Shown here one piece after another: positions 1-15,973 of a stretch of 19,002 nucleotides of DNA. This DNA comes from a candidate division WOR-3 bacterium (GTDB lineage: Bacteria; Hydrothermota; Hydrothermia; Hydrothermales; Hydrothermaceae). The translations under genes and the position numbers were made by a program. Where the stretch lies: positions 1 through 19,002 of the forward strand of contig JBDRZD010000036.1 of NCBI GenBank assembly GCA_039803745.1, written 5' to 3'. Positions within the stretch are counted from its first letter, which is position 1, and each line of letters starts with the position of its first letter. Below the pieces are notes generated by a model that saw only the letters and a program-made list of their open reading frames with translations, had not been told where the DNA came from and did no database searches.

Positions 1-2021
1 AAAGAAATTATTTTCCATGAACCTGCTGAATGGTTAGAATAATAGGGTCTATAAGATAAACTGAATATTCCCTGAACTTCCTGAAATTTTATTTCTCCTT
101 CACTTGAATCAGGATAAGAAGGGAAAAAACCATCTGCATTATCATCAAAAATAATATTTATAATATCATTCCCTGATGTAAAATCTTCTAAAATGATTCC
201 TATATAAAAAATTGAATCAGAATTTTTAAAAAATGCAAATGCCTTTTCAACATTTCTTTTATTATCTTTTGCAAGAAAATCAGATATATCAATTTTTTCG
301 GCATCATTCCATTCATTATCCATAATTACTCCATCAATTAAAGGTAAATTTGAAGAATGAGGAATACTTACAAATTTTCTTACATTGTAAGAATAAATCC
401 TTGCTTTTATTGTATCATTTCTGTGCATCTGCTCATTTTGTGAACTTATATAACATTTTAAATCATAAGAGCCATTCTCAAATTTTGCAGTAAAGGGTGG
501 AAAATCTGTCGAATCTTTTTGACCTTGTGAAAGATAAAGATTATATACTGTATTTTCATAAATTGTATTTCCAAGGGAATCTATTTTTAAAGTTATTGAA
601 AAATTTTCAGAATAAAAACCCCTGTTTGAGAAATAAACCTTTGGAATAAAGGAAGAATCTTTTTTTAAAACAGGCGGAAAATTTGAATTATCAAGGGATA
701 AATTATGAACTGGAATTACAGCAAGATCCGCATACATCGTGTCATCTAAATCAGATACCCCTGTTATAGAAACATATGTTGTTACAAAGTTATAATCCTT
801 TGAATCAGGAATTGAATAGTTGTCAAAATTTCTATTATTTGTATTTCCAGGATAAGGGTCTCCCCCGTCTCCCCTATTTTGTCCCTTTTCTAAGTTCCAT
901 AAACCATCAGCCTGCTCAAGAGCAACTTTATAATGACCATATTGTGTATGACCTGGATACCATTCATTATTGTTATTTGGTTGATTCTCATCAACATGGA
1001 AAATGAGTAAACCCCATCCGGGCAAAGAAATATCAAAGCCTTTTTTATTTCTGAATTCTACAAGAAAATACATCGGTGAAGAATTACCATATGTCCATAA
1101 TCTATAACCAACCGGATATTCATTTGAAGAAAGGATAACTGCATTCTCTATAATGCCTGTAACATTCACTGGAATTAAAAAACCGAGTTTATATTTACAC
1201 CATATATCAAAATGAACAGGTTTTGCTCCATTCCCTCCCCATGAACCTCCTGCCATCATTGACCAGTCTCCAAGCCCTTCTGATGAATAATCAGTATCAT
1301 ATAAATCAGGAAGACCTATAACATGACCAAGTTCGTGCCCAAAAACCCCTATTCTTCCATTCTCTGGTTCCATTGAATACCTGTAAACTCTTACACCATC
1401 AACCCAAACTCCACCCGGGATATACCATGCATGAGACCATATATGGTTTGGATTACCCGTCTCTTCAGCTCCAGGTCCTGCATGAACTATGAATATTGCA
1501 TCAACATCTCCATTACCATCTCTATCAAATTGAGAAAAGTCTATATAAGGGTCCGCTGCTAAAACAGCATCCCTTGCAAGACCCTGTGCATTCTGCGGAT
1601 AAGGACCAAATCCATATTGACCATTAGTATAATAAGTATAAAGCTGTGGCATCATAAGCCAATCTGAAACAATTCCATTTATGAAAAAATGATTATAAGA
1701 ATTTTCAAGATAGTAATCTGTTAAAGAGCCTGTTGGATAGGAATTTACTGAAAAAAGCATTTCTTCAAAATGGGTCTTTGAAGATTCTGCCTGATTGTCA
1801 ACAAATTCAACAAGTATGACTGGAATACCCAGAGTATCATATTGCCTCTCAAGAAGTCTTATTCTAAATCTTTCAAGGTTTTCATAATCAGGAGCATCAA
1901 CCCCTTTTTCTTTTGCTTTTATTAAAATCTCTTTTGTTTTTTCCCATTCTTCTTTTGAAAGCCTTTCTTTTAAATCAGGATGTGGTAAAAGGAGAAGAAT
2001 AACATAAATTAAAGTTTTCAT
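1..2021 (-). CDS. Secreted M6-family (immune inhibitor A-like) zinc metalloprotease with C-terminal beta-rich accessory domains; 3' end runs off the window
   Basis: Translated by hand. ATG at 2021-2019 follows AAGGAG, and the frame stays open to base 1 (>=673 aa). It begins MKTLIYVILLLLPHP and contains M6 hallmarks IPVILVEF, GSLTDYYLENSY, DFSQFDRDGNGDVD, FIVHAGPG, IWSH, GVFGHELGHVIGLPDLYD (HExxH at 1337-1323), WSMMAGGSW and GLLIFHVDE. It is absent from the ORF track because no stop lies in the window. Confidence 0.9.
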   Translation of the reverse strand, partial: MKTLIYVILLLLPHPDLKERLSKEEWEKTKEILIKAKEKGVDAPDYENLERFRIRLLERQYDTLGIPVILVEFVDNQAESSKTHFEEMLFSVNSYPTGSLTDYYLENSYNHFFINGIVSDWLMMPQLYTYYTNGQYGFGPYPQNAQGLARDAVLAADPYIDFSQFDRDGNGDVDAIFIVHAGPGAEETGNPNHIWSHAWYIPGGVWVDGVRVYRYSMEPENGRIGVFGHELGHVIGLPDLYDTDYSSEGLGDWSMMAGGSWGGNGAKPVHFDIWCKYKLGFLIPVNVTGIIENAVILSSNEYPVGYRLWTYGNSSPMYFLVEFRNKKGFDISLPGWGLLIFHVDENQPNNNNEWYPGHTQYGHYKVALEQADGLWNLEKGQNRGDGGDPYPGNTNNRNFDNYSIPDSKDYNFVTTYVSITGVSDLDDTMYADLAVIPVHNLSLDNSNFPPVLKKDSSFIPKVYFSNRGFYSENFSITLKIDSLGNTIYENTVYNLYLSQGQKDSTDFPPFTAKFENGSYDLKCYISSQNEQMHRNDTIKARIYSYNVRKFVSIPHSSNLPLIDGVIMDNEWNDAEKIDISDFLAKDNKRNVEKAFAFFKNSDSIFYIGIILEDFTSGNDIINIIFDDNADGFFPSYPDSSEGEIKFQEVQGIFSLSYRPYYSNHSAGSWKIIS

Positions 2022-2042
2022 TTTATCTCCTTTTAAAATTAA

Positions 2043-2072
2043 ATTATAATTAAATTTGATTTAAAAGGTCAA
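2043..2072 (-). promoter_or_regulatory. Putative sigma70 promoter of the protease gene
   Basis: Minus strand TTGACC (2072-2067), 18-nt spacer, TATAAT (2048-2043). Confidence 0.55.
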
Positions 2073-2085
2073 TTTGAATTATAAT
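2056..2085 (+). promoter_or_regulatory. Putative sigma70 promoter of the meaB operon (probably leaderless)
   Basis: TTGATT (2056-2061), 18-nt spacer, TATAAT (2080-2085). The GTG start is 7 nt downstream with no Shine-Dalgarno. Confidence 0.55.
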
Positions 2086-2092
2086 TAAATCT

Positions 2093-3022
2093 GTGAAAGA
2101 GATTGTTGATAAAATTAGGGAAGGAGATGAGAAAGAAATTGCAAGATGTATTTCCTTAATTGAAAAAAATTCTGAAAATTCTTCTCATATTTTAAAAGAA
2201 ATATTTCCATATACAGGAAAAGCAATAAGAATTGGAATAACAGGACCACCTGGCGTTGGTAAATCAACACTTATAGATAAATTGACACTTCTTTTAATAG
2301 AGAAAGATAAAAGTGTTGGAATAATTGCACTTGACCCTGTTTCCCCTTTTTCAGGAGGTGCTTTATTAGGTGACAGGATAAGAATGAGTGATTTAAATCT
2401 TGAAAATAAGGTTTTTATAAGGAGTATGGCATTAAGGGAAGGAAAAGGGGTTTCAAGATTTGCCCTTGATGCTGCTGATATCCTTGATGCATCAGGAAAG
2501 GATTATATAATTATAGAAACTGTTGGTATAGGGCAATCAGAAATAGAGATTGCTTATTTAACGGATTGCACAATACTTGTTCTTTCACCTGAAGCAGGGG
2601 ATGGGATACAGGCAATGAAAGCAGGAATTCTTGAAACAAGTGATTTAATAGTTATAAATAAATCGGATAGACCTGGAGCCGAAGAACTTAAAAAGGATAT
2701 AATTTTTGCATTCAATTTGTCAGGAAAAGAGGCAGAGGTTATACTTACAAATAGTCTTAAAGGCGAAGGAATTTCTGAACTCTTAGAAAAAATTGAAGAA
2801 TTTATCATTAAAGCAAAAAATTTAGAAAAATTTGAAAAGAGAAGAAAAGAAATAATAAAGGAAAGAATTAAAAAATTGATTTTTTCAAAAATAGAAGAGA
2901 AGATAATGGAGAAAATAAGTGAAAATGATTTTATTGAAAAAATGGCAAATTATGTATATAATTTAAAATTTTCTACCCATGAAGTAGCAAATGAATTTAT
3001 TAAAAAATTTTTAGGAGGGTAA
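2093..3022 (+). CDS. meaB: MeaB/ArgK family GTPase chaperone of a B12-dependent acyl-CoA mutase
   Basis: Motifs [49 protein letters not shown] and VINKSD. Lies directly upstream of the mutase genes. Confidence 0.95.
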
Positions 3023-3023
3023 A

Positions 3024-4736
3024 ATGGACGAAAGAGAAATTAAAAGGGAAAGCTGTAGCTCTGGACAAGATTTTTATTCCTCTATTGAGACTAAAAAAGC
3101 AGAGGTAATAGAAGATCTTGAAGAAAGAATAAAAAGACTTTCACAGAAAAATTCTCGTTTTCCAGGAAGTATAACTCCTTTTGAAAAACTCTATTATACT
3201 TCAAAAGATGTTGAAAATTTGAATTATGAAAAGGATCTCGGAAATCCGGGAGAATTCCCTTTTACAAGAGGTGTATATGAAACAATGTACAGGGGAAAAC
3301 TATGGACAATGAGAATGTTCTCAGGATTTGGAACTGCAAAAGAGACTAATAAGAGGTTTAAATTTTTACTTGAACACGGACAAACAGGACTTTCTATTGC
3401 CTTTGACATGCCTACACTTATGGGATATGATTCTGACCATCCAAGAGCAAGAGGAGAGGTTGGAAAGGAAGGAGTCGCAGTATGCACACTGCAGAATATG
3501 GAAACACTTTTTAAAGATATACCCCTTGATAAGGTTTCAACTTCAATGACGATAAATCCCACTGCCTTTATACTTCTTGCCTTTTATGTCGCAGTTGCAG
3601 AAAAACAGGGTGTTCCATTACACAAATTAAGGGGAACAATTCAAAATGATATATTAAAAGAATATATTGCCCAAAAGGAATTTATTTTTCCACCAGAACC
3701 TTCAATAAAACTTATAGTTGATACTGTTGAATTCTGTTCAAAATATATACCCAAATGGCACCCAATATCAATAAGTGGATATCATATAAGGGAGGCAGGA
3801 GCAACTGCTGTTCAGGAACTTGCATTTACTTTGATGGATGGCTTTACTTATGTAAAATATGCAATTGAAAGAGGACTTGATGTTGATGAATTTGCTCCAC
3901 AACTTTCTTTTTTCTTTAATTCCCATATGAACTTTTTTGAAGAAATAGCAAAATTCAGGGCTGCAAGAAGAATATGGGCAAGATGGATGAAAGAAAAATT
4001 TGGTGCAAAAAAACCTGAATCAATGAGATTAAAATTTCATACCCAAACAGCAGGATGTTCTTTAACTGCTCAACAGCCTGAAAATAATATAATAAGAACA
4101 ACAATTGAGGCACTTGCAGCAGTTTTGGGTGGAACACAGAGTTTACATACAAATTCAATGGATGAAGCACTTGCCCTTCCCACTGAAAAAGCAGCAAAGA
4201 TTGCACTAAGAACACAGCAGATAATTGCATATGAAACTGATATTCCTGATGTTATTGACCCTCTTGCAGGTTCATACTTTATTGAATATTTAACAAATAA
4301 AATGGAGGAAGAAGCAGAAAAGATATTTAAGAAGATAGAGGAAATGGGTGGGATGGTTGAAGCAATTAAAAAGGGATGGCCACAAAGGGAAATATCAAGA
4401 TCTGCTTATGAGTTTCAAAAAGCAGTTGAAGAAAGGAAATATCTTGTTGTAGGTGTTAATGAATTTGTTGAAGATGAAAAGATTGAAATTCCTATTTTAA
4501 AAATACCTCCAGAAATTGAAGAAGAACAGGTAAAGGAAGTAAAGGAGTTTAAACAAAATAGGGACAATATCCTTGTTAGAAATAAACTTGAAGAACTAAG
4601 AAAAGCAGCAGAAAGAAATGATAATTTAATGCCTTATACAATTGAAGCAGTTAAGGCACATGTTACACTTGGTGAGATAATTGAGGAACTTAAAAAAGTT
4701 TATGGAACCTGGCAGGAACCACCAAATTTATATTAA
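3024..4736 (+). CDS. Adenosylcobalamin-dependent acyl-CoA mutase, large substrate-binding subunit (methylmalonyl-CoA mutase family; isobutyryl-CoA mutase-type residues)
   Basis: Motifs [67 protein letters not shown] and [16 protein letters not shown]. It has no B12-binding domain (split enzyme). Confidence 0.93.
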
Positions 4737-4739
4737 AAT

Positions 4740-5147
4740 ATGAAGGAAAAAATAAGGGTATTAATTGCAAAAGTGGGACTTGATGGGCATGATAGAGGAG
4801 CAAAGGTTATAGCATCTGCTTTAAGAGATGCAGGTTTTGAGGTAATATATTCAGGGCTTCACCAAACACCTGAAGCTGTAATAAGAACTGCAATTCAGGA
4901 AGATGTTGATGTTATAGGTATAAGCATACTTTCAGGTGCTCATATGACAATATTTCCGGAAATTTTAAAACTTATGAAGGAAAAAGGGCTTGATAATGTC
5001 CTTTTAACAGGTGGTGGAATAATACCAGAAGATGATGCACAAAAGCTTTATGAAATGGGGGTGGGGAAACTTTTTGGTCCGGGCACCCCTTTAAGCGAAA
5101 TAATTGAATATATAAAGGAGGAAATCAAAAGAAGAAAAAAAGAATAA
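4740..5147 (+). CDS. Acyl-CoA mutase small cobalamin-binding subunit
   Basis: DxHxxG base-off/His-on motif in [14 protein letters not shown], plus SILSGAH and GGGIIP; 135 aa. Confidence 0.95.
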
Positions 5148-5168
5148 AAAATATTTTGTGGAGGTAAA

Positions 5169-7169
5169 ATGAGGGTGGTTTTATTTACAGGTCATGGTGG
5201 TTGTGGTAAAACACAACTTGCAGAGGCAATCCTTTATAAGGCAAAAGTTACACAAAGGCTTGGGAATCCATCTCAGGGAAATTCTATCCTTGATTATGAC
5301 CCTGAAGAGATTGAAAGAAAAATATCAATAAACCTTTCCTGTGCCCACTTTAAATATAAAAATGAGGAATTTGAAATTATAGATACCCCTGGATTTCTTG
5401 ATTTTCAGGGAGAGTTTATAGCAGGGATAGAAGTAACAGATAGTGTCATTCTTGTGGTTGATTCTACCTCTGGAATTCAAACAGGAACAGAGATATTCGG
5501 GCAAAAAGTTTTTGAAAGAAAATTGCCCTGTATGATATTTGTAAGTAAGATGAAGATGGAAAATTCAAATCCTGATGAATTAATTGAAAGATTAAAAGAA
5601 ACATTTGAAGGAGTCTCATTTTTCCCACTCCAATTTCCAAAAGGGAAGGGAGTTAATTTTGAAGGTACATGGAATATATTTGATGAAAATTTACCAGCAG
5701 ATTTAAAGAAAATTAAAGAAAAATATATGGAATCAGTTATAGAACTTTCAGAAGAACTTGTTACAAGATATTTGGAAGGAGAAGAAATAGGTGCCTCTGA
5801 ACTCAAAGAGGTGTTAAAAAGAGGCGTAAAAAATGGAGAGATTGTCCCTGTTCTTTATGGAGATTCAATAGAGGGAATAGGAATTGAAGAATTACTGGAT
5901 GCAATAATAGATTATTTCCCCTCGCCATTTGAAAGAAAATATAAGGCTTTTGACTCTGAGGAAAAAGAAGTTGAGATAATGCCTTCTCCTCAAGGAGATC
6001 TATTATCTTTTGTATTTAAAACCTTTACAGAGCCGCATCTTGGTGAAATATATTATATAAGGGTTTTTAATGGAGAACTAAAAGCAGGAACAGAAGTTTT
6101 AAATGTGAATAAAGCGGCAAAGGAAAAGATAAATCAGATATTCAAAGTAATGGGGAAGGAGAGAAAAGAAACAGAAATTTTAAGAACAGGTGAAATTGGA
6201 GCAGTTGTCAAATTAAAGAATACAAGTACCTCTCATACACTCTCATCACTTGAAAAACCTTTAAAATTGAAACCAATTGAATTTCCAAATCCTTCAATAT
6301 CAATTGCTGTTGTTCCACTATCCAAACAGGATGAAGAGAAAGTTATGGAGGCACTCCAAAAAGTTTCCTTTGAGGATCCAACATTTAGATTTTATTATGA
6401 CCCTGAACTTAAACAGAGGATAATAGAAGGACTTGGTAGTGTCCATCTTGATGTTATAATATCAAAAATAAAAAGGAAATTTGGAGTAAATGTAAGAACT
6501 GAAAGACCAAAAATTCCTTATAGGGAAACAATAAGAAAGAAGGCAGAAGCAATGGGTAAATATGTAAAACAAAGTGGTGGAAGAGGTCAATATGGTATAT
6601 GTTTTATAAGAATAGAACCAAAGAAAAGAGGGGAAGGATATGAATTTGTGAATGATATATTCGGAGGAGCAATACCTTCAAACTTTATCCCTGCGGTTGA
6701 AACAGGAATTAAAAAGGCAATGCAATCAGGAGTTTTAGCAGGTTATCCTGTTGTTGATGTAAAAGTAACCCTATATGATGGCAAATATCATGAAGTTGAT
6801 TCATCAAATATTGCTTTTGAAATAGCAGGAAGTATGGCATTCAGGGAAGCACAGCAAAAAGCAGAACCGTATCTTTTAGAACCTATATATGAGATTGAAG
6901 TGATAGTTCCTGAAGAATACATGGGAGAAATTATTGGAGATTTAAATGCAAGAAGGGGAAAAATATTGGGGATGGAAGGATTCGGAAAAAAGCAGAAAAT
7001 AAAGGCATATGTTCCCCTTGCAGAGATTTATAGATATGCAGATAGTTTGAAAAGTATCACGAAAGGGAAAGGAGTTTTTTCAATGAAGTTCTCACATTAT
7101 GAAGAGGTCCCATCTGAAATTGCTGCAAGAGTTATAAATGAATCAAAAAAGGAAAAAGGTGAGGAATGA
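5169..7169 (+). CDS. Elongation factor G paralogue (EF-G2-like) with degenerate GTPase motifs
   Basis: Motifs GHGGCGKT, DYDPEEIERKISI, IDTPGF, EDPTF, GLGSVHLD, PYRETI, KQSGGRGQYG, YHEVDSS, LLEPI and GDLNARRG; 666 aa. GGAGG SD upstream. Confidence 0.92.
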   Translation: MRVVLFTGHGGCGKTQLAEAILYKAKVTQRLGNPSQGNSILDYDPEEIERKISINLSCAHFKYKNEEFEIIDTPGFLDFQGEFIAGIEVTDSVILVVDSTSGIQTGTEIFGQKVFERKLPCMIFVSKMKMENSNPDELIERLKETFEGVSFFPLQFPKGKGVNFEGTWNIFDENLPADLKKIKEKYMESVIELSEELVTRYLEGEEIGASELKEVLKRGVKNGEIVPVLYGDSIEGIGIEELLDAIIDYFPSPFERKYKAFDSEEKEVEIMPSPQGDLLSFVFKTFTEPHLGEIYYIRVFNGELKAGTEVLNVNKAAKEKINQIFKVMGKERKETEILRTGEIGAVVKLKNTSTSHTLSSLEKPLKLKPIEFPNPSISIAVVPLSKQDEEKVMEALQKVSFEDPTFRFYYDPELKQRIIEGLGSVHLDVIISKIKRKFGVNVRTERPKIPYRETIRKKAEAMGKYVKQSGGRGQYGICFIRIEPKKRGEGYEFVNDIFGGAIPSNFIPAVETGIKKAMQSGVLAGYPVVDVKVTLYDGKYHEVDSSNIAFEIAGSMAFREAQQKAEPYLLEPIYEIEVIVPEEYMGEIIGDLNARRGKILGMEGFGKKQKIKAYVPLAEIYRYADSLKSITKGKGVFSMKFSHYEEVPSEIAARVINESKKEKGEE

Positions 7170-8254
7170 AAACTTTAATATATTTTTTAATTTTCTTTAA
7201 TTTTAAGGTTTATGATGCTCCATATGATGCAGGAGGAGCAATTATAATAGAATGGGAATGGCCGGAAGAGAAAAAAGGGGAAAAATGTGATTCTGTAACA
7301 ATATGGAGAAGCACATCAAGAGAAGGTGAATTTGAAAAAATTAAAACACTTGTGACAATTCTAAATTCCTATAAGGATATAGGACTTGAAAATGGGAAAG
7401 AATATTTTTATAAGATAACACTCTACTATAAAGATAAAATTTTTGAATCAGAAGATATTCTTTCTGCAATTCCGAAGACACAGTATTTCCATCTTGGAAG
7501 ATTAAATATAATGATAGGTGTTTTTCTTTTCTTAACATTTATACTATTTTTCATACAAAGAGCAAAAAAGGGAATAAGTTTATTTTTAAGGAAAATACCA
7601 GGACTTGATGCTGTTGAAGAAGCAGTCGGAAGATCAACAGAGATGGGAAGACCAATTCTTTATATTCCTGGTCTTTCAACAATTTCAGATGTTGCAACAA
7701 TTGCATCATTAAATATACTTTCACAGGTTGTTAAAAAGGCTGCTGAATATGAAACCAACATAATTATTCCGAACCGTGATCCAGTTGTTTATTTAATTGC
7801 AAGAGAAGTTGTAAAAGAAGCATATACGATGGCAGGAAGACCAGACCTTTTTAATGCTGATTCTGTTTATTATGTAACAGATTCACAATTTGGTTATGCT
7901 TCTGCTGTTTGTGGAATAATGGTAAGGGAAAAACCAGCAACAAATTTCTTCCTCGGAATGTTCTGGGCTGAATCATTAATTTTAGCAGAAACAGGTGCAA
8001 CAACTGGTGCTATTCAGATTGCAGGAACAGATGCAGTAACACAATTGCCTTTCTTTATAACAGCCTGTGATTATACACTCATAGGAGAAGAACTCTATGC
8101 AGCATCGGCTTATCTTTCAAGAGAACCGGTTCTTGTTTCAACAATAAGGGCACAGGATATGATGAAGGCAATAATATGGATAATAATATTTTTAGGAGGA
8201 ATTTTGGGACTATTTGGGAAAAAACCTTTTGAATTTATATTTGGTGGAGGATAA
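7166..8254 (+). CDS. Uncharacterised membrane protein: N-terminal exported FN3-like domain, TM helix, DUF6754-like domain, C-terminal TM
   Basis: Short hydrophobic N-terminus and FN3-like motifs (IIIEWEWP, IWRSTS, YKDIGLENGKEYFYKI). TM NIMIGVFLFLTFILFFI, then RKIPGLDAVEEAVGRSTEMGRP...QLPFFITACDYTLIGEELYAASAYL. I recognise this as DUF6754-like from memory; no search was run. ATGA overlap with the upstream gene. Confidence 0.75.
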   Translation: MKTLIYFLIFFNFKVYDAPYDAGGAIIIEWEWPEEKKGEKCDSVTIWRSTSREGEFEKIKTLVTILNSYKDIGLENGKEYFYKITLYYKDKIFESEDILSAIPKTQYFHLGRLNIMIGVFLFLTFILFFIQRAKKGISLFLRKIPGLDAVEEAVGRSTEMGRPILYIPGLSTISDVATIASLNILSQVVKKAAEYETNIIIPNRDPVVYLIAREVVKEAYTMAGRPDLFNADSVYYVTDSQFGYASAVCGIMVREKPATNFFLGMFWAESLILAETGATTGAIQIAGTDAVTQLPFFITACDYTLIGEELYAASAYLSREPVLVSTIRAQDMMKAIIWIIIFLGGILGLFGKKPFEFIFGGG

Positions 8255-8256
8255 AA

Positions 8257-8874
8257 ATGCTACAAAAAAAGATACCGATGTTTATATGTTTTTTAATGGG
8301 TTTCCTTCTTTTTTTCCAATTCTATATCCCTACATCATGGTCTCAAAACTTTTATAGTACCATATTAAGATGGATTTTAGGAATTTCCTCTTTCGCAATT
8401 GTTCTTGCTGTTGCAAGTCTTGTAAGACATCATACAAGAAAAATAAAGGAAAGGAAAGACATACCCTATTCAATTACACTTCTCGTCTCTCTCGTTGCCA
8501 CTGCGCTTATAGGATTTATAGGGGGAATAAAAAGTGGAACACTATTTGATAAAATCTTTAACTATATTCAAATACCATTACAATCATCAATGTTTGCAAT
8601 ACTCGCTTTTTATATGGCTTCTGCTGCTTATAGAGCATTCAGAGCAAGAAACATTGAAGCAACCTTACTTCTTTTGGCAGCATTCATTGTAATGATAGGA
8701 GTAATACCAATAGGTGATTTAATACATCCATATGTTCCTTCTTTTGCCCAATGGATACTTGATGTTCCAAACCTTGCAGCAAAAAGGGGAATAGCAATTG
8801 GTGTTGGGCTTGGAATAATCGCAACATCAATCAAAATAATTTTAGGAATTGAAAGGAACTGGCTTGGGAGGTAA
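8257..8874 (+). CDS. Uncharacterised polytopic membrane protein (about 5-6 TM)
   Basis: 205 aa with several hydrophobic segments and the motif SMFAILAFYMASAAYRAFRARNIEA. GGAGG SD; starts 2 nt after the previous stop. Confidence 0.8.
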   Translation: MLQKKIPMFICFLMGFLLFFQFYIPTSWSQNFYSTILRWILGISSFAIVLAVASLVRHHTRKIKERKDIPYSITLLVSLVATALIGFIGGIKSGTLFDKIFNYIQIPLQSSMFAILAFYMASAAYRAFRARNIEATLLLLAAFIVMIGVIPIGDLIHPYVPSFAQWILDVPNLAAKRGIAIGVGLGIIATSIKIILGIERNWLGR

Positions 8875-8876
8875 AA

Positions 8877-9698
8877 ATGAAATTCCTTGAATATCTTGCA
8901 AAGATTGATAGAAGAATAATTTATTTAATTCTTGCAATCTTTATTATAATACCTCTTATAAAACCCTTAAATTTACCTATCGGAAGTTCCCATCCTGTCA
9001 AATCACTTTTTGATTTTATAGAAAAACAGCCTGAAGGAGCAGTTATAGTTCTATCAATGGATTACGATGCTTCAGTTTATCCTGAATGCCATCCAATGTC
9101 AAGGGCAATAGCAAGACATGCCTTTTTAAAAAATTTAAGACTAATCGGACTCACATTAAACCCAGCAGGAACAGGGCTTGCTCTTGAAGTTATGACAGAA
9201 ATTCCGAAAGAATACAATAAAAAATATGGTAAGGATTATGTATTTTTGGGATTCAGACCAGATATAACTGCAACTATTCTTGGATTTGGTGAGGATATAA
9301 GAAAAATATTTCCTTATGATTATTTTGGGAATAAAACTGATACATTACCAATATTTAAGGATGTTAAAAATTATGACCAGATAGCACTTGTTGTTTCAAT
9401 TTCTGGTTCCGCGCTGCCGGTTTCCTGGATATACCTTGCAAGAGGAAGATATGGACAGGATATTGCTGCAGGAGTTACTGCTGTTATGGCTGCCGATTAT
9501 TATCCTTATTTAAGGACAGGACAATTTGTTGGTCTTTTGGGAGGTATGAAAGGTGCTGCTGAATATGAAAAACTTATTGAAAGAAGAGAACTTGCTACTT
9601 CCGGAATAGATGCAGTATCAATATCCCATATCCTGATAATCCTTTTTGTAATAATTGGAAATATAGGATATATAGTTCTTTTAAAAAGGAGGAAATAA
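8877..9698 (+). CDS. Uncharacterised membrane-anchored protein (N- and C-terminal TM flanking a soluble domain of about 215 aa)
   Basis: 273 aa: IDRRIIYLILAIFIIIPLI, a soluble alpha/beta-like region, GLLGGMKGAAEYE, and a C-terminal TM followed by KRRK. GGAGG SD. Confidence 0.8.
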   Translation: MKFLEYLAKIDRRIIYLILAIFIIIPLIKPLNLPIGSSHPVKSLFDFIEKQPEGAVIVLSMDYDASVYPECHPMSRAIARHAFLKNLRLIGLTLNPAGTGLALEVMTEIPKEYNKKYGKDYVFLGFRPDITATILGFGEDIRKIFPYDYFGNKTDTLPIFKDVKNYDQIALVVSISGSALPVSWIYLARGRYGQDIAAGVTAVMAADYYPYLRTGQFVGLLGGMKGAAEYEKLIERRELATSGIDAVSISHILIILFVIIGNIGYIVLLKRRK

Positions 9699-10321
9699 TG
9701 AATATATCTCTTAATCCATGGATATGGATTGCAGCAATTTTAACAATAGCAATATTTTCTTTTCTTTATAAAGATAACCCATTATATAAATTTGCAGAGC
9801 ATTTACTTGTTGGTGTTACAGTTGGATATTATATAAACATTTACTGGCATAATGCAGCATATCCATATATAATAAAACCACTTTTCTTAGAAAAACAATT
9901 CCTGACCTTGATTCCTTTTATGTTTGCAATTCTCTATTTTTCAATTTTAATTCCCAAATATTCCTATTTTATAAGATATCCAATTGGATTCTTACTTGGT
10001 GCATTAAATGGAATGGCAATTTCCCCTGAATTTAAAGAGGCAATCCTTGTTCAAGTAAAGGATACAATTTTACCTCCTTTTTCTTTTTCCTTAGAGTTTT
10101 TTAATTCATTAATTATCTTTATAGGAACACTATGTGTTTTAATTTACTTTTTCTTCTCCCTTGAACATAAAGGAGTATTGAAAGGTTTTTCAAGAATAGG
10201 AATAATATTTTTAATGATAGGTTTTGGCGCATCCTTTGGATATACTGTGATGGCAAGAATTTCCCTTTTAATTGGAAGGATTATATTCCTTTTAAAAGAT
10301 TGGCTTGGTATCATTAGATAA
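9698..10321 (+). CDS. Uncharacterised polytopic membrane protein (about 6 TM)
   Basis: 207 aa with motifs FSFLYKDNPLYKFAEHLLVG and FLMIGFGASFGYTVMARISLLIGR. AGGAGG SD; TAATG overlap with the previous gene. Confidence 0.8.
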   Translation: MNISLNPWIWIAAILTIAIFSFLYKDNPLYKFAEHLLVGVTVGYYINIYWHNAAYPYIIKPLFLEKQFLTLIPFMFAILYFSILIPKYSYFIRYPIGFLLGALNGMAISPEFKEAILVQVKDTILPPFSFSLEFFNSLIIFIGTLCVLIYFFFSLEHKGVLKGFSRIGIIFLMIGFGASFGYTVMARISLLIGRIIFLLKDWLGIIR

Positions 10322-11666
10322 GAAAGTATTCATAATAGGACTTGATGGAGTTCCTTATAATTTAATTTTTGAAGAATGGATAGATGAATTAAAGAATTTT
10401 AAAAATTTAAAAGAGGAAAGTGAGTATGGAATTTTAGAGAGTATAATTCCTCCAATAACTGTTCCTGCATGGCTTTCAATTATTACAGGTAAAACACCCG
10501 GTGAACTTGGAATTTATGGATTCAGAAACAGAAAATCCTATGAAGACTATACTCTTTCAATAACAACTTCATATGATGTTAAAGAAGATACAATATTTGA
10601 GGAAATTTCAAAAACTGGATATAAGGTGATATCCTTTGCAGTCCCACCTTCTTATCCTCCAAAACCATTAAATGGAATAAGAATCTCCTGTTTTTTAACA
10701 CCTGATTCAAAATCTCAATATGCATACCCTGAAGAAATTAAAAAAGAGATTGAAGAAAAATTTGGTGAATATATTTTTGATGTAAGAAAATTCAGAACAG
10801 ATGATAAGGAATGGCTTTTAGAGGAAATATATAAAATGACAGAACAGAGATTTGAAATTGTTAAATATTTGATGAAAAATAAGGAATGGAATTTATTCTT
10901 TTTTGTTGAAATGGGACCTGATAGAATCCATCACGGTTTCTGGAAATTTTTTGATAAAAATCACCCAAAGTATGAAAAGGGAAATAAATATGAAAAGGAA
11001 GTTAAAAAATATTACATTTATCTTGATGAAAAAATTGGAGAAGTTATAAATCTTTTGCCTGATAATTCTTATATATTTATTCTTTCTGACCATGGAGCAA
11101 AAGGAATGGAAGGAGGAATTGCAATAAATGAATGGTTAATTAAAAATGGTTTTTTAAAATTAAAGAATTATCCTGAAGAAACAAAAAGACTTGAAATCCA
11201 GAATATTGACTTTTCAAAAACTATTGCCTGGGGAGAAGGTGGTTATTATGGAAGGATTTTTTTGAATATAAAGGGAAGGGAAAAAGAAGGGATTGTGGAT
11301 AAAAAGGATTATAAGAGAATAAGAAGAGAATTAAAAGAAGAAATTGAAAAAATACCTGATGAAAAAGGAAATAAAATAAACACTTTTGCTTATTATCCTG
11401 AAGAAATATATCCTCAAATAAAAGGGATTCCTCCTGATTTAATAATTCTTTTTGGTGATTTAAAATGGAGAAGCATAGGAAGTATAGGGATAAAAAATAT
11501 ATATACCTTTGAAAATGATACAGGACCTGATGACGCAAATCATTCAATGGAAGGAATTTATTTAATAAGGTATCCCGATTTAAAAGAAAAAGGAAGAAAG
11601 GATTTAAAAATCTATGATATATATAAAATTTTAAAGAATATATTCTACGCCCCTGGAGGGACTTGA
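10305..11666 (+). CDS. Alkaline phosphatase superfamily protein (type I phosphodiesterase/nucleotide pyrophosphatase-like), probably cytoplasmic
   Basis: Motifs VFIIGLDG, PPITVPAW..IITGKTPG (Thr nucleophile region), PDRIHH, LSDHG and ANHSMEG. No signal peptide. The TTG start overlaps the previous gene, and its exact position is uncertain. Confidence 0.88.
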   Translation: MVSLDKKVFIIGLDGVPYNLIFEEWIDELKNFKNLKEESEYGILESIIPPITVPAWLSIITGKTPGELGIYGFRNRKSYEDYTLSITTSYDVKEDTIFEEISKTGYKVISFAVPPSYPPKPLNGIRISCFLTPDSKSQYAYPEEIKKEIEEKFGEYIFDVRKFRTDDKEWLLEEIYKMTEQRFEIVKYLMKNKEWNLFFFVEMGPDRIHHGFWKFFDKNHPKYEKGNKYEKEVKKYYIYLDEKIGEVINLLPDNSYIFILSDHGAKGMEGGIAINEWLIKNGFLKLKNYPEETKRLEIQNIDFSKTIAWGEGGYYGRIFLNIKGREKEGIVDKKDYKRIRRELKEEIEKIPDEKGNKINTFAYYPEEIYPQIKGIPPDLIILFGDLKWRSIGSIGIKNIYTFENDTGPDDANHSMEGIYLIRYPDLKEKGRKDLKIYDIYKILKNIFYAPGGT

Positions 11667-11722
11667 ACCCCCAACCATCTGGTCCGAAGCCAGACGCTCT
11701 TGTCCAATTGAGCTACAGGGGC
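11648..11722 (-). tRNA. tRNA-Arg (anticodon UCG), CCA not encoded
   Basis: Cloverleaf GCCCCTG-TA-GCTC..GAGC-G-TCTGG CT TCG GA CCAGA-TGGTT-GGGGG TTCAAGT CCCTC-CAGGGGC-G. Anticodon at 11687-11685. Confidence 0.95.
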
Positions 11723-11726
11723 GAAG

Positions 11727-11800
11727 GGTGGGCGAGGGGACTCGAACCCCCAGCCACCAGAGCCACAGTCTGGCGCTCTACCACTTGAGCTACGCCCACC
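11727..11800 (-). tRNA. tRNA-His (anticodon GUG) with encoded G-1, CCA not encoded
   Basis: G-GTGGGCG-TA-GCTC..GAGC-G-CCAGA CT GTG GC TCTGG-TGGCT-GGGGG TTCGAGT CCCCT-CGCCCAC-C. The G-1:C73 His identity pair is present. Confidence 0.95.
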
Positions 11801-11817
11801 AAAAATTAAAGATAATA

Positions 11818-11846
11818 ATTATAAAGAATTTATAAAAATTTTTCAA
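11818..11846 (-). promoter_or_regulatory. Putative sigma70 promoter of the tRNA pair
   Basis: Minus strand TTGAAA (11846-11841), 17-nt spacer, TATAAT (11823-11818), lying 17 nt upstream of tRNA-His. Confidence 0.65.
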
Positions 11847-11849
11847 CAT

Positions 11850-11879
11850 TTGACTTTAATTTCAGGATAAAGTTATAAT
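11850..11879 (+). promoter_or_regulatory. Putative sigma70 promoter of the pal-cpoB-tol operon
   Basis: TTGACT (11850-11855), 18-nt spacer, TATAAT (11874-11879). AGGAGG SD before the pal ATG. Confidence 0.6.
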
Positions 11880-11909
11880 TTATATTCTTAAAATTAAAAA
11901 GGAGGAAAT

Positions 11910-12371
11910 ATGAAAAAGTATATAGTGGTAGGAATGGTGATAATGACCCTTATGTGTGCAAAAAGAAAAACTGTAAAGGTTGAAGCACCAATGGAAGAAC
12001 TTCCAAAACCACCAGAAGAGGTTAAAGAAGAAGTTCCTGAAAGACCACCTCTTGTGCTTGAAACAATACATTTTGATTTTGATAAATATGATATAAGACC
12101 GGGAGATGCAGAAATTCTTAAAAGGAATGCAGAAATACTAAAGGCATATCCTGAAGTAAATGTTATAATTGAAGGACATACCTGTGATATAGGGACTGAA
12201 GAATACAATATGGGACTTGGTGAAAGAAGGGCAAAAAGTGCAAGGGATTACCTGGTTAAACTTGGAATTGATCCAAATAGACTTTCAATCATAAGTTATG
12301 GAGAAACACGCCTTATAGATCCAAATAATAAACCTATAAACAGGAGAGCAGAATTCAAAGTAAAAGAATAA
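11910..12371 (+). CDS. pal: Peptidoglycan-associated lipoprotein (OmpA C-terminal domain)
   Basis: Lipoprotein-like signal MKKYIVVGMVIMTLMC, plus IHFDFDKYDI, IEGHTCDIGTEEYNMGLGERRA, ISYGE and NRRAEF. Adjacent to the tol genes. Confidence 0.9.
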   Translation: MKKYIVVGMVIMTLMCAKRKTVKVEAPMEELPKPPEEVKEEVPERPPLVLETIHFDFDKYDIRPGDAEILKRNAEILKAYPEVNVIIEGHTCDIGTEEYNMGLGERRAKSARDYLVKLGIDPNRLSIISYGETRLIDPNNKPINRRAEFKVKE

Positions 12372-13048
12372 AAAAACTAATCTTTATATTTTTATTTTTA
12401 AGTTTTTGTGCTCCTATAAGGAATTTTAGAAATGAATTGAATCGTGTAAGAGATGAAATTGACGAGATTTATGTAAGAACACAAAAAATAGATAGTTTAC
12501 AGAAAAAAGAATATAAAGAATTAAAGGAGTTAAAAGCAGACATTACATATAGGCTTGAAACTCTTGAAAGAAAACTTTTCTCTCTTGAAACAAGATTAGA
12601 TGAAATGGAGAATTTTTTAAGGAAAGGAAAAGTTAAAAAAGAGGAAACAAAAGAAGAAGTTAAAGAAGAAAAGAATGAGGAGATGATAATTTATTCACAG
12701 GCTCTTAAAGATTATAGTGCTGGCGAATACAATTTATGTATAAGTGAATTTGAAGAATTCATAAAAAGATATCCTGAAAGTGAATATATAATAGATGCAA
12801 AATATTTTCTTGCCGATGCATATCTTTATATTCAAAATAAAGAAAAGGCTAAAACTCTTTTTGAAGAAATAGTAAGGGATTATCCTAAATCCCAAAAGGC
12901 AAAATACTCTCTTTTAAAACTTGGAAATATTTTTGAGGAAGAGGGAAATAAAGAAAAGGCTAAAAAGTATTATGAGGAAATCATAAAAAATTTTCCTGAG
13001 TCAGAAGAAGCAATAAAGGCAAAGGAAAAATTAAAGGAGATTAAATGA
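12368..13048 (+). CDS. cpoB: Tol-Pal system coiled-coil/TPR protein (CpoB/YbgF-like); start probably ATA at 12368 rather than TTG at 12437
   Basis: N-terminal coiled coil followed by TPRs (FEEFIKRYPES, AKYFLADAY, IVRDYPKS, LLKLG, IIKNFPES). The in-frame upstream extension (M)KKLIFIFLFLSFC supplies the otherwise missing signal peptide. Confidence 0.8.
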   Translation: MKKLIFIFLFLSFCAPIRNFRNELNRVRDEIDEIYVRTQKIDSLQKKEYKELKELKADITYRLETLERKLFSLETRLDEMENFLRKGKVKKEETKEEVKEEKNEEMIIYSQALKDYSAGEYNLCISEFEEFIKRYPESEYIIDAKYFLADAYLYIQNKEKAKTLFEEIVRDYPKSQKAKYSLLKLGNIFEEEGNKEKAKKYYEEIIKNFPESEEAIKAKEKLKEIK

Positions 13049-13716
13049 AAATTTTAAACTTAGATATAATTGTAAGGGGTTTTGAAACTGCAAGTCCTTT
13101 TGCAAAATTAATACTCATAATTTTATTCTTTCTTTCTGTTCTTTCTTGGGCAATATTCATTAAAAAATTTTTTGAATTTTTACTTATTAAAAAAAGGACA
13201 AGAAGTTTTATTGAAAAATTTAATGAGATTCCCTTCGAAGATTTAATAAAAAAAAATCCATTTGATTTAAAAAAGAAAATTTTACCTTCTTCTGTTTTAA
13301 AAATTGTGGTGAACGAAATTGAGAAAATAAAGGAAAACCCTGCTAAAATTGAATTATCTTCAATTCTTTTTGAAAATATTGAAAAAATTTATAAAAAAGA
13401 AATTGAAAAACTTGAAAAATATATCCCGGTTCTTGCAACAATAACAAGTGTGAGCCCATTTTTAGGGCTTCTTGGAACCGTATGGGGAATTATGGAAGCA
13501 TTCCTTGAAATAAAAAGAACAGGCTCTGCCCATATAAGTGTGCTTGCTCCTGGAATTGCAGATGCTTTGATTACCACAATTGCAGGGCTTCTTGTTGCAA
13601 TCCCATCTTTAATTTTTCACAACTATTTTATAAATGAAACAAATAAATATGATTCTCTTTGTGAAGAATTTTTAAAGGATGTAAAAATAAAAATTAAAAA
13701 ATACTTAATTCTTTAA
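13045..13716 (+). CDS. tolQ: MotA/TolQ/ExbB proton channel protein
   Basis: Motifs LATITSVSPFLGLLGTVWGIMEAF and LAPGIADALITTIAGLLVAIP. Confidence 0.92.
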   Translation: MKILNLDIIVRGFETASPFAKLILIILFFLSVLSWAIFIKKFFEFLLIKKRTRSFIEKFNEIPFEDLIKKNPFDLKKKILPSSVLKIVVNEIEKIKENPAKIELSSILFENIEKIYKKEIEKLEKYIPVLATITSVSPFLGLLGTVWGIMEAFLEIKRTGSAHISVLAPGIADALITTIAGLLVAIPSLIFHNYFINETNKYDSLCEEFLKDVKIKIKKYLIL

Positions 13717-14103
13717 ATGAAAAGAAAATTTATTTCAGAGATAAATATAACTTCCCTTGCCGATGTTAGCATTACACTTCTTGTTATATTTCTTATAACA
13801 AGCCCTCTTCTTCAAACAGGTTTTGAGGTAAATTTGCCAAAATCAAAAAAAACAGAAGAATTAAAAAAAGAAGCAATAACAATAACTTTAAGAAAAGATA
13901 AAAAAATATTTGTGGGTGAAGAGGAAGTGGAGATTTCTAAATTGCCTTTTTATCTTGAAATTCTTTCAAAAAAGGGAAAAAAGGAAGTATTCATAAAGGC
14001 TGATAAAGAACTTTCTTATGGATTTGTCATGGAAATAGTTGGGGAAATAAAAGACAAAGGGTTTGAAAGGGTTGGTTTTTTACTTGAGCCCAAAAGAGAA
14101 TGA
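13717..14103 (+). CDS. tolR: TolR/ExbD protein
   Basis: SEINITSLADVSITLLVIFLITSP (conserved TM Asp), VNLPKS and IKADKELSYGFV. Confidence 0.9.
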   Translation: MKRKFISEINITSLADVSITLLVIFLITSPLLQTGFEVNLPKSKKTEELKKEAITITLRKDKKIFVGEEEVEISKLPFYLEILSKKGKKEVFIKADKELSYGFVMEIVGEIKDKGFERVGFLLEPKRE

Positions 14104-14666
14104 TAAGGGAATTTTTGATTTCTTTTTTCTTACATGTTTTTATTATAGGTTCCTTTTACATAAAAAGAGAAAGGGAAAAAATTTATCTTCCCCAAACTGT
14201 TTTTTATATAGAAATTAAAGAAGCAGTAAGTGAAGGTAAATTATTGGAAAAAACATCCGAGGAATCAGGAATTGTGGAAAAAATAAGAGAAATCCCTAAA
14301 AGAGCAAAAAAGAAAGAGGAAAAAGTGAAGAAAGAAGGGATTCCCCACCTTTCATTAAAAGGAGGAGGAAAAGCAAAATTAAGTATAAACATACCCTATT
14401 CATATTATTTTGGAATTCTTTTACAAAAAATAAGTGAAAATTGGAATTATACCCATTTACATAAAGATACTTTAAGGGCAACAATATATTTTGTAATATT
14501 AAAAGATGGTTCGCTTCAAGATATAAGGATTGAAAAAACTTCAGGAGATTTAATTTTTGATCAATCTGCGTTAAGGGCAGTTATATTAACCAAAAGGGTT
14601 CCACCCTTGCCAGAAGAAATGAATATGGAATTCTTAAGGGTTTATCTTGAATTTGAAGTGCCGTGA
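14100..14666 (+). CDS. Short TolA/TonB-family energy transducer
   Basis: N-terminal TM with SxxxH (ISFFLHV), a Lys/Glu-rich linker and a TonB/TolA C-domain (KISENW, ILKDGSL, TSGDLIFDQSALRAV, PPLP). Lies between tolR and tolB. Confidence 0.8.
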   Translation: MIREFLISFFLHVFIIGSFYIKREREKIYLPQTVFYIEIKEAVSEGKLLEKTSEESGIVEKIREIPKRAKKKEEKVKKEGIPHLSLKGGGKAKLSINIPYSYYFGILLQKISENWNYTHLHKDTLRATIYFVILKDGSLQDIRIEKTSGDLIFDQSALRAVILTKRVPPLPEEMNMEFLRVYLEFEVP

Positions 14667-15934
14667 AAAAGATAATTTTTATAATTTTTCCGTGCATCCT
14701 TTTCTCACAAGGAGAAGTTTATTTAAAATTGAAAGGAGGAGAAGCAAAAAAACTTGATATTGGTATATTCCCTTTTGGTCTTTTTGAAAAAATCTCACCT
14801 GAATTAAAGAGGAAATTAAAGGAGGTACAAAAAGTTTTAAAAGATGACCTTGAATTTTCCCTTTACTTTAGAATTACAATTCCTGATTCAAATATCATAG
14901 AGAAAAAACATTACTCTGATTTTGCCTTCTGGAGAAATCTTGGCTGTAATATACTCTTAAGAAGTGAAACAAAAGAAAAGGATAACACTATAATAGTTGA
15001 ACTTATTGACATTGCTCTTGGAAAAAGAATCGCAAGAGAAAACTTCTCACTTTTACTTCCTGAAAGAAAATTAGCCCATAAAATAGCAAATTTTGTTGTG
15101 AAAAAATTAACAGGAGAGGATGGAATATTTGAAACATACATCGTATTTACATTTGATATAAATGAAAAAAGAGAATTATATATGATGGATTACGATGGCT
15201 ATAATATAAGAAAAATAGAGACAGAAGGTGAAAAAAAGCTCTTTCCAAGAGTTTCTCCCTGTGGTCAAAAGATAGTTTATTCAACATACATAAAAAAAGA
15301 TTTAATGGGAATTTATTTGATAGATTTAGAGAAAAGTAAAATATCCCTTTTAATATCAGAAAAGAAGGGATTAAATCTTCCAGGTGGTTTTTTCCCAAAT
15401 TCAAGGGAGATATGCATTACTTTGTCAAAAGATGGCGACCCTGAAATATATATTTTGAACATAGAGAATAGAAAATTAAAAAGGTTAACATATTCGCCCT
15501 TTATAGATATATCACCATCTGTTTCAAGCAAAGGGAATGAAATAGCCTTTGTATCTGACCGCTTGGGTTCACCCCACATTTTTATAATAGATAAGGATGG
15601 ATTAAATTTAAGAAGAATTACTTATGAGACAAGTTATAATACTTCACCAAACTGGTCACCAAGAGGAGATTTTATAGCATATGTTGCCCTTGACGAAGAA
15701 GGAAGAAATCAAATATATTTGACTGACCCATTTGGAGAAAAAACTTTCAAATTAACCTATGAGGGCTCAAATGAAGACCCCTGTTTTTCACCTGACGGAC
15801 TCCATATAGTTTTTGTTTCTACAAGGGAAGGCTCTTATGATATATATGTGATGAACTTTGATGGCTCAAATGTAAAGAGATTAACAAATATTGGCAATTG
15901 CCATTTTCCATACTGGTCAGGTATACCAAAATAA
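14663..15934 (+). CDS. tolB: TolB: N-terminal alpha/beta domain plus PD40 beta-propeller
   Basis: Signal peptide, LAHKIANFVVKKLTGEDGIFET, and repeated SPxG / IAFVSDR.G / PNWSPRG / FSPDG motifs. Confidence 0.92.
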   Translation: MKKIIFIIFPCILFSQGEVYLKLKGGEAKKLDIGIFPFGLFEKISPELKRKLKEVQKVLKDDLEFSLYFRITIPDSNIIEKKHYSDFAFWRNLGCNILLRSETKEKDNTIIVELIDIALGKRIARENFSLLLPERKLAHKIANFVVKKLTGEDGIFETYIVFTFDINEKRELYMMDYDGYNIRKIETEGEKKLFPRVSPCGQKIVYSTYIKKDLMGIYLIDLEKSKISLLISEKKGLNLPGGFFPNSREICITLSKDGDPEIYILNIENRKLKRLTYSPFIDISPSVSSKGNEIAFVSDRLGSPHIFIIDKDGLNLRRITYETSYNTSPNWSPRGDFIAYVALDEEGRNQIYLTDPFGEKTFKLTYEGSNEDPCFSPDGLHIVFVSTREGSYDIYVMNFDGSNVKRLTNIGNCHFPYWSGIPK

Positions 15935-15935
15935 T

Positions 15936-15965
15936 TTGATTTTTTATTTTTTTAAAAAATATAAT
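15936..15965 (+). promoter_or_regulatory. Putative sigma70 promoter of fabH (probably leaderless)
   Basis: TTGATT (15936-15941), 18-nt spacer, TATAAT (15960-15965). The ATG is 8 nt downstream with no SD. Confidence 0.55.
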
Positions 15966-15973
15966 TAAATTCT

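Follow-up and report, generated by a model that had tools for sequence, protein, structure and literature searches.

The stretch of DNA analysed here is the 19-kb contig C36 (GenBank JBDRZD010000036.1, positions 1 to 19,002; hereafter the window) from a genome bin of a candidate division WOR-3 bacterium (1.67 Mb, ~31 % G+C, 93 % complete). It carries four consecutive genes, termed A to D, the first of which encodes a protein of the Pfam family DUF6754. We propose, at a probability of roughly 0.55, that these genes are one of two copies of the membrane module of an uncharacterised seven-protein ATP-linked system, with uptake as the preferred function. The other three proteins would be a soluble trio encoded elsewhere in this genome, namely a GlmL-like ASKHA ATPase, a 374-residue partner and a small protein. 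That A to D belong with this trio is highly probable, whereas a role in taking up a nutrient, for instance amino acids or peptides, is assigned tentatively.

The cassette is conserved as a four-gene unit

The four genes and their junctions are as follows (coordinates of the window; genes as called from open reading frames, ORFs).

7166-8254, plus strand: gene A, 362 residues, DUF6754 protein
8257-8874, plus strand: gene B, 205 residues, polytopic with ~6 helices, no family match
8877-9698, plus strand: gene C, 273 residues, N-terminal helix, middle domain of ~205 residues and C-terminal helix, no family match
9698-10321, plus strand: gene D, 207 residues, polytopic with 5-6 helices, no family match
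8246-8259, plus strand: A/B junction GGAGGATAAAAATG, with a Shine-Dalgarno sequence within the 3' end of A, the stop TAA at 8252-8254, a 2-nt gap and the ATG of B at 8257
8867-8879, plus strand: B/C junction GGAGGTAAAAATG, as read from the sequence
9688-9700, plus strand: C/D junction, GGAGG at 9688-9692 followed by TAATG at 9696-9700, in which stop and start overlap by 1 nt

A preliminary description of this DNA had reported four consecutive genes separated by 2-nt gaps or an overlap, and the ORFs, all on the plus strand, and the quoted junctions agree with it. A pattern-plus-tblastn scan with one genome per species yielded 76 loci, the titles of which name the Stahlbacteria, Edwardsbacteria, Fermentibacteria, Zixiibacteriota, Cloacimonadota, Poribacteria, Planctomycetota (including Scalindua), Nitrospirales, Ignavibacteriales, Eisenbacteria and others. 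A full A-B-C-D run on one strand is present in 62 of the 76 loci, giving 79 runs in total, with tandem runs in 14 loci. Among the 14 loci that lack a full run, nine break off within 2.5 kb of A (in one of these A and C are seen, with B undetected), one has a split B, one has A-B-C only, and three have no cassette gene besides A in the 4.2 kb or more that follow it. Moreover, a second A-B-C-D cassette is found on contig C25 of the same genome, with the same order and overlapping junctions. Its A, B, C and D share 49, 36, 43 and 46 % identity with those of the window, and its A scores 360 bits on DUF6754. Because of this paralogous copy and the order kept across most loci, the block is more than a chance arrangement. 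A-B-C-D is a conserved four-gene unit in many poorly studied phyla, as the preliminary description had anticipated for both the block and its distribution.

Near-identical contigs are present in hot-spring metagenomes of several studies. Independent metagenome contigs span the region with 0-3 differences, including X9 (2090 nt, 7781-9870), X10 (3445 nt, 7781-11225) and X13 (2435 nt), the last of which bridges the junction between A and the preceding elongation factor G (EF-G)-like gene. The gene arrangement is therefore not an assembly artefact. In addition, the metatranscriptome library X16 contains short contigs that are 92-97 % alike and cover each of the four genes in part, as well as the A/B and C/D junctions; these stem from a relative, may reflect carry-over of DNA, and carry no meaning for the parts they leave uncovered.

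The cassette co-occurs with a soluble trio

Clustering of the genes around the cassette in the 76 loci showed that one set recurs immediately upstream of A. It consists of a small protein (~90-160 residues), an ATPase of ~600 residues and a partner of ~375 residues. This genome encodes a single copy of each, on three other contigs.

C17:18923-20752: GlmL-like ASKHA ATPase, 609 residues, 63-68 % identity to cassette-linked copies
C11:12970-14088: partner, 374 residues, 52-57 % identity to cassette-linked copies
C34:17151-17414 (L102:8152-8415), minus strand: small protein, 87 residues, found by comparison with cassette-linked copies

Searches by tblastn with these copies gave the number of loci, out of 76, in which each protein is encoded no farther than 10 kb from A: 18 for the ATPase orthologue (62-69 % identity), 16 for the partner and 15 for the small protein. 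Wherever they are syntenic, the order is always small protein, ATPase, partner and A-B-C-D. Another neighbour cluster, 'c10', was discarded, as it consisted of ORFs antisense to the ATPase and partner genes in GC-rich loci.

The association extends to genomes in which the genes lie apart. In a 201-genome sample of the own phylum, DUF6754 is present in 184 genomes and PF13941, the Pfam family of the ATPase, in 180, with both in 178, DUF6754 alone in six, PF13941 alone in two and neither in 15; as these 15 all come from one genus, their lack of both may reflect a single loss. The Planctomycetota provide a better test of co-occurrence, because the family is patchy there. Among 151 sampled genomes of that phylum, 40 have DUF6754. 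A strong PF13941 match accompanies it in 38 of them, all of which also have the partner; the other two have DUF6754 only. The 111 genomes without DUF6754 show no strong PF13941 match, one weak match (3e-29) and three below the cut-off. In cassette-bearing genomes of other phyla the ATPase was found in five of five, in one of them 1.6 Mb from the cassette. The number of DUF6754 matches per genome ranges from 1 to 7 compared to mostly one for PF13941, these being matches and not copy numbers; this genome has two cassettes for one ATPase.

These results bear on the earlier suggestion that A to D alone form a self-contained secondary transporter, channel or transmembrane sensor. In its favour, no ATPase gene lies in or beside either cassette of this genome, and the six and two genomes mentioned above have DUF6754 without a PF13941 match. 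Nevertheless, the cassette is tightly associated with the ATPase and the partner across two phyla (in the Planctomycetota, 38/40 versus 0/111 strong matches), the ATPase is syntenic with it in 18 loci, the most conserved part of the module is a soluble cytoplasmic domain, as expected of a docking or catalytic face, and no known secondary-transporter or sensor domain was found. As co-occurrence and synteny suggest that the cassette is probably not self-contained, we consider this reading improbable.

The ATPase is GlmL-like but scores below the GlmL cut-offs

The ATPase matches PF13941 ('MutL', GlmL family, actin/Hsp70 fold) with an E value of 1e-127 over residues 9-480, and the recurrent ~600-residue ATPase of the other loci matches it at ~1e-130. 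Both ASKHA phosphate motifs are kept, DCGSTTTK at residue 13 and DIGGATTD at residue 286, and a C-terminal extension of ~130 residues follows the PF13941 region. The protein falls below the NCBIfam cut-offs for GlmL (NF040745, 237.3 versus 475), Or-4 (NF040744, 218 versus 600) and the GlmL family (TIGR01319, 174 versus 204). Sequence search against solved structures returned nothing at E ≤0.01. A second, distant PF13941-like paralogue, 36 % identical to the ATPase of this genome, occurs in Fermentibacteria-type loci (L054:4982-7732 and L040:19032-20525); in L054 it has 916 residues and directly follows D.

GlmL/MutL and Or-4 are accessory proteins of B12-dependent glutamate mutase and of ornithine degradation. 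The name of the ATPase, together with the genes for MeaB, the methylmalonyl-CoA mutase large subunit and the B12-binding subunit on the same strand at 2093-5147 of the window, could thus point to a cobalamin-related function, as could the PF13941 match itself. However, neither the scores of the ATPase nor its gene position, which is not beside glmS/glmE, places it in GlmL; its neighbours encode a TPR protein and UDP-glucose dehydrogenase, with no mutase, and the mutase genes near the cassette are not conserved beyond the genus. We therefore regard a cobalamin-related role as extremely improbable.

The partner and the link to glycine cleavage

The partner is highly conserved, with a mean column identity of 66 % over 12 sequences. 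It belongs to no Pfam family, and a structure-sequence search gave chance-level rows only. Its start resembles RnfC_N, the N-terminal barrel-sandwich domain of RnfC/NqrA, at a sub-threshold score (23.9 bits, cut-off 25.6), and in ESM Atlas clusters like the partner RnfC_N, Biotin_lipoyl or NQRA_N occurs in 10-30 % of members, which we take as a lead only. On C11, the end of the partner gene shares 4 nt with a gene for a cyclic-nucleotide-binding protein of 195 residues (C11:12376-12964; L101:3381-3968, minus strand), which might regulate the system in this genome.

The glycine cleavage gene gcvPB precedes the small protein, ATPase, partner and A-B-C-D in 10 of the 76 loci, with GcvT, GcvH and GcvPA farther upstream in several, and a lipoate-protein ligase follows the cassettes in four. 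In this genome, the small protein gene on C34 directly follows gcvPB and precedes a fused PurS/PurL gene. Between gcvPB and the small protein, four loci have a further protein, 'c18', of 145-180 residues with two transmembrane helices and no Pfam match, a weak relative of which is found in this genome at C2:25175-25507.

L052:5835-6281, L055:1164-1706, L084:5941-6423 and L086:3340-3777: 'c18' genes, from neighbour clustering

These neighbours and the RnfC_N-like score of the partner would fit an energy-coupling or redox complex tied to glycine cleavage, in which the RnfC/NqrA-like partner and two polytopic subunits of ~200 residues would act as a cofactor-poor cousin of Rnf or Na+-NQR or as a decarboxylation-coupled ion pump. 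Such a complex is nevertheless quite improbable: B, C and D have no Rnf/Nqr or FMN_bind match, motifs for Fe-S, haem or conserved flavinylation are absent, the partner's candidate lysine of the lipoyl type varies in the alignment, and several cassettes per genome with variable ectodomains are unlike a core bioenergetic complex.

Protein A joins a variable outward domain to a conserved cytoplasmic domain

Protein A matches DUF6754 (PF20539) over residues 104-353 with 389.1 bits and an E value of 9.4e-117, against a gathering score of 27 bits, which bears out its earlier designation as DUF6754-like. Its parts are the following (gene on the plus strand).

Residues ~13-101, nt ~7202-7468: signal/anchor-like N-terminus and outward FN3 domain (profile, AlphaFold2, VIA-align)
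Residues 110-134: first transmembrane helix, TM1 (hydropathy, AlphaFold2)
Residues ~135-329, nt 7568-8152: cytoplasmic Rossmann-like domain, core of DUF6754 (AlphaFold2)
Residues 330-357: second transmembrane helix, TM2 (hydropathy)

The AlphaFold2 model of A, built from a 55-row alignment, has a mean confidence (pLDDT) of 91.3 and consists of a β-sandwich (13-101), a long helix (110-134), a domain of alternating strands and helices (145-318) and a terminal helix (321-349). The β-sandwich is an FN3 domain: its profile matches titin FN3 with an E value of 2.7e-19, and VIA-align superimposes it on an FN3 domain of gp130 with a Z score of 12.1 and a root-mean-square deviation (rmsd) of 2.0 Å over 94 aligned residues. 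An exported FN3-like module on A had indeed been suggested before. Family-averaged hydropathy indicates two membrane helices in A, and Lys and Arg are enriched directly after TM1, so that the α/β domain should be cytoplasmic and the FN3 domain outside. As modelled, DUF6754 is a cytoplasmic Rossmann-like domain between two helices, with no integral-membrane core.

Folded alone, the cytoplasmic domain reaches a pLDDT of 90.5. Foldseek returned a best E value of 1.1e-3 with TM-scores ≤0.46, and VIA-align a flat list (Z 8.3-9.5) of 50 unrelated Rossmann-type chains, including phosphoglycerate kinase, sirtuins, RCK/KTN domains and methyltransferases. Neither search thus revealed a specific structural relative, only a generic Rossmann-type likeness. 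Searches with the whole model were set aside: the top rows of Foldseek (Nir2 C-terminal domain, E 1e-6) have an rmsd of ~26 Å over both domains and are untrustworthy, the remainder being FN3 matches, and the list of VIA-align was filled by FN3.

The two parts of A differ greatly in conservation. For the cytoplasmic domain, identity is 62 % when the two local copies are compared, averages 65 % over 54 homologues and ranges from 57 to 81 % between the window copy and those of other phyla, compared to 29 % between local copies and 25 % on average for the outward part. A search of 1.84 billion representative proteins placed the cytoplasmic domain in 2157 clusters (50 % identity), of which 919 match at E ≤1e-30. 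The domain always lies near the C-terminus, in proteins of 282-1276 residues among the best 150, and the ectodomain ranges from none to more than 1000 residues. The closest counterparts of A in the sister-family genomes G048, G063, G093, G098, G119 and G198 are ORFs of 262-264 residues without FN3, and the outward domain is therefore dispensable for the module. In a scan of 47 long homologues of A, PQQ_2/BamB-like propellers were recognised in 12 and fn3 in three, nothing beyond DUF6754 was recognised in 32, and no solute-binding or enzyme domain was found.

Ectodomains of this scaffold type would suit a machine for envelope or surface assembly, in which A to D and the ATPase export, insert or anchor an extracytoplasmic polymer or protein and the ectodomains serve as scaffolds for cargo or for partners in the wall and outer membrane. 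For this reason we rank such a role second, as unlikely but credible. It agrees with the TonB-dependent receptor and ExbB/ExbD/TonB genes that follow the cassettes in five loci, with the Tol-Pal genes (named by reading) 1.6 kb downstream of the cassette in the window, and with pilus and type II secretion platforms, in which bitopic membrane proteins serve as docking sites for actin-fold proteins. On the other hand, no cargo, pilin, secretin, secretion-ATPase or glycosyltransferase gene recurs beside the cassettes among the neighbour clusters of the 76 loci, the Tol-Pal neighbourhood is kept only within the genus, and the recurrent neighbours are catabolic, namely the glycine cleavage genes.

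Proteins B, C and D match no known family

Family-averaged hydropathy gives ~6 membrane helices for B, two for C and 5-6 for D, and the ~205-residue middle domain of C lies probably outside the cytoplasm, judging from charge bias. The earlier view of four membrane-protein genes holds, but the DUF6754 part of A is a predicted cytoplasmic domain between two helices.

In Pfam and NCBIfam, none of B, C and D scores above a curated cut-off. When 55 homologues of each were scanned at E ≤1, only scattered hydrophobic noise appeared, the best shared matches being DUF3704 (11/55) and TMD0_ABC (10/55). Sequence search against solved structures returned nothing at E ≤1, and C has hypothetical clusters only in the ESM Atlas. 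In sequence comparison with Pfam and NCBIfam, no known secondary-transporter, channel or sensor family was found among the three. Likewise, no characterised complex was matched in Pfam, NCBIfam or the sequence searches of solved structures, in keeping with what had been expected at the outset.

The preliminary description also held that the four proteins have no ATPase, Fe-S, haem or flavinylation motif. Walker A (GxxxxGK[ST]), CxxCH and CxxC motifs are indeed absent from all eight proteins of the two local cassettes. The only [ST]GA[ST] string, at residue 276 of A, falls within the cytoplasmic domain and is missing from the paralogue. A pseudo-symmetry in which A resembles C and B resembles D was dropped at the sequence level (hhalign probabilities of 2.0 % and 2.3 %). 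Complex prediction with alignments for residues 101-362 of A together with B, C and D scored 0.73, 0.74 and 0.73, compared to 0.00 and 0.00 with an unrelated protein in place of A; with C swapped for an unrelated protein the score was still 0.74, so that the prediction counts neither for nor against binding.

Genomic context of the window

Around the cassette, the window contains the following features.

7166-7169, plus strand: overlap ATGA, in which the EF-G-like gene (5169-7169) stops and A starts
10305-11666, plus strand: gene of the AlkP superfamily, overlapping D by 17 nt (ORF calls)

The tightly packed gene string thus exceeds four genes and extends from MeaB (2093) to the AlkP-family gene (11666) with all gaps ≤21 nt, in the order MeaB, methylmalonyl-CoA mutase large subunit, B12-binding subunit, EF-G-like gene, A-B-C-D and AlkP-family 'Phosphodiest' gene. 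The MeaB GTPase, the mutase large subunit and the separate B12-binding subunit are all on the plus strand, with gaps of 1-21 nt up to the EF-G-like gene. The cassette first described as a four-gene unit is accordingly conserved as such, but it is embedded in a longer string, the EF-G-like and AlkP-family genes of which overlap its ends. Owing to the ATGA overlap, the cassette is probably co-transcribed with the preceding genes. Sequence scanning of 2093-11666 found no terminator-like site except a weak one inside the EF-G-like gene. The promoter and terminator scan was uninformative, with 46 promoter-like sites versus 46.5 expected and one terminator-like site versus 6.9 expected.

The EF-G paralogue has 666 residues and scores 807 bits on NF009381 'elongation factor G' (cut-off 583). 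The order EF-G-like gene then A-B-C-D is kept in three of three family relatives and in two of three checked sister-family genomes, but not in three other families of the class. The AlkP-superfamily gene has a TTG start and a cytoplasmic-looking product matching Pfam Phosphodiest (E 2.8e-43), and it follows D in three of three checked relatives, being kept within the family. Farther downstream, from a reading of the translations, we take 11910-15934 to be a Tol-Pal cluster (OmpA/Pal-like, YbgF-like TPR, TolQ, TolR, TonB/TolA-like, TolB), followed by FabH and FabD. At the other end, a 673-residue ORF at 3-2021 (minus strand) runs off the window start and has an HExxH zinc-peptidase motif (HELGH) and long Asn/Ser-rich β-type regions. 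Across the 76 loci, no peptide-type ABC importer gene appeared among the neighbour clusters present in at least three loci, the single ABC cluster being of the ABC-F type.

Proposed mode of action

We propose that A presents a variable outward domain, here FN3, together with a very conserved cytoplasmic Rossmann-like domain, and that the shared soluble ATPase set acts on the cytoplasmic face of A. ATP turnover would thereby be coupled to an event across the inner membrane that A to D carry out. Each copy of the cassette would confer a different specificity, like the S components of group II energy-coupling factor (ECF) transporters that share an energising module. Uptake is ranked first because the neighbours include catabolic and outer-membrane-uptake genes, and because one soluble set appears to serve many modules. 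A bolder version of this proposal, possible but doubtful, is a new class of ATP-driven membrane machine, in which the ASKHA ATPase, the RnfC_N-like partner and the small protein constitute one shared energising module for several interchangeable four-protein modules, each with a different outward binding domain, so that an ECF-like logic would have arisen from unrelated parts.

Several observations weigh against the seven-protein uptake system. Six genomes of the own phylum and two of the Planctomycetota, some of them 94 % complete, have DUF6754 without a PF13941 match, and the independent losses behind the co-occurrence may be few, as the 15 genomes with neither represent one genus and the Planctomycetota counts ignore kinship. 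None of the soluble trio is encoded adjacent to the cassette of the window. In three loci (L037, L039 and L061) A is unaccompanied, B, C and D being absent from the following 4.2 kb or more; a complete cassette is present at another locus, L036, of one of these genomes. Sequence scans gave no transporter family for B or D, and ASKHA ATPases are not known to power a transporter. Moreover, the domain scans indicate that the ectodomains of long A proteins are binding scaffolds and not solute-binding proteins, and the Rossmann-like domain, with its invariant acidic residues, could itself be an enzyme.

Presence of DUF6754 in 184 of the 201 own-phylum genomes, its high conservation and its frequency in uncultivated, mostly anaerobic lineages suggest that the system is likely of physiological importance. 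If an ASKHA ATPase does drive a membrane process, a new way of energising such processes would join those of the P-loop, rotary and ion-coupled machines. The present annotation of the ATPase, as a helper of a vitamin-B12 enzyme, would also stand corrected as a systematic error.

Comparison with known systems

A full-text literature search found no publication naming 'DUF6754' or 'PF20539'. The passages of PMC5167688 on MutL and glutamate mutase concern ordinary glutamate mutase and DNA-repair MutL and were set aside as irrelevant.

The Pfam entry DUF6754 covers only A, that is TM1, the cytoplasmic Rossmann-like domain and TM2, and is a catalogue entry without function. B, C and D as well as the partner and the small protein fall outside any family found, and the ATPase is placed by its PF13941 match only. 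With GlmL/MutL and Or-4 (PF13941; NF040745, NF040744, TIGR01319) the ATPase shares this match and both ASKHA phosphate motifs, but it differs in its scores below the cut-offs, its C-terminal extension of ~130 residues, the lack of a mutase neighbour and its co-occurrence with DUF6754 cassettes.

Group II ECF transporters combine one shared EcfAA'T module with many scattered S components. They serve as a working analogy only, in that one soluble set here faces several membrane modules, scattered or in tandem (1:2 in this genome, and up to seven DUF6754 versus one PF13941 matches in relatives, which are not copy numbers). There is no relation in sequence or fold; the ATPase is of the ASKHA and not the P-loop type, the module has four proteins instead of one, and transport is conjectural here. 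ABC transporters differ in that neither an ABC_tran domain (Pfam and NCBIfam) nor a Walker A motif occurs in the unit.

PilM-PilN-PilO and GspL are similar in combining a cytoplasmic actin-fold protein with bitopic membrane proteins that carry outward domains. However, A to D have no Pfam match to them, and no pilin, secretin or secretion-ATPase genes lie beside the cassettes. Rnf and Na+-NQR resemble the system in the sub-threshold RnfC_N match of the partner and in a membrane part with two polytopic subunits of ~200 residues and bitopic subunits, and differ from it in the Rnf/Nqr and FMN_bind domains that B, C and D lack and in Fe-S or conserved flavinylation motifs, which are absent here. 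Altogether, as far as sequence-level comparison goes, the system of the DUF6754 cassette and its soluble trio is outside every characterised kind.

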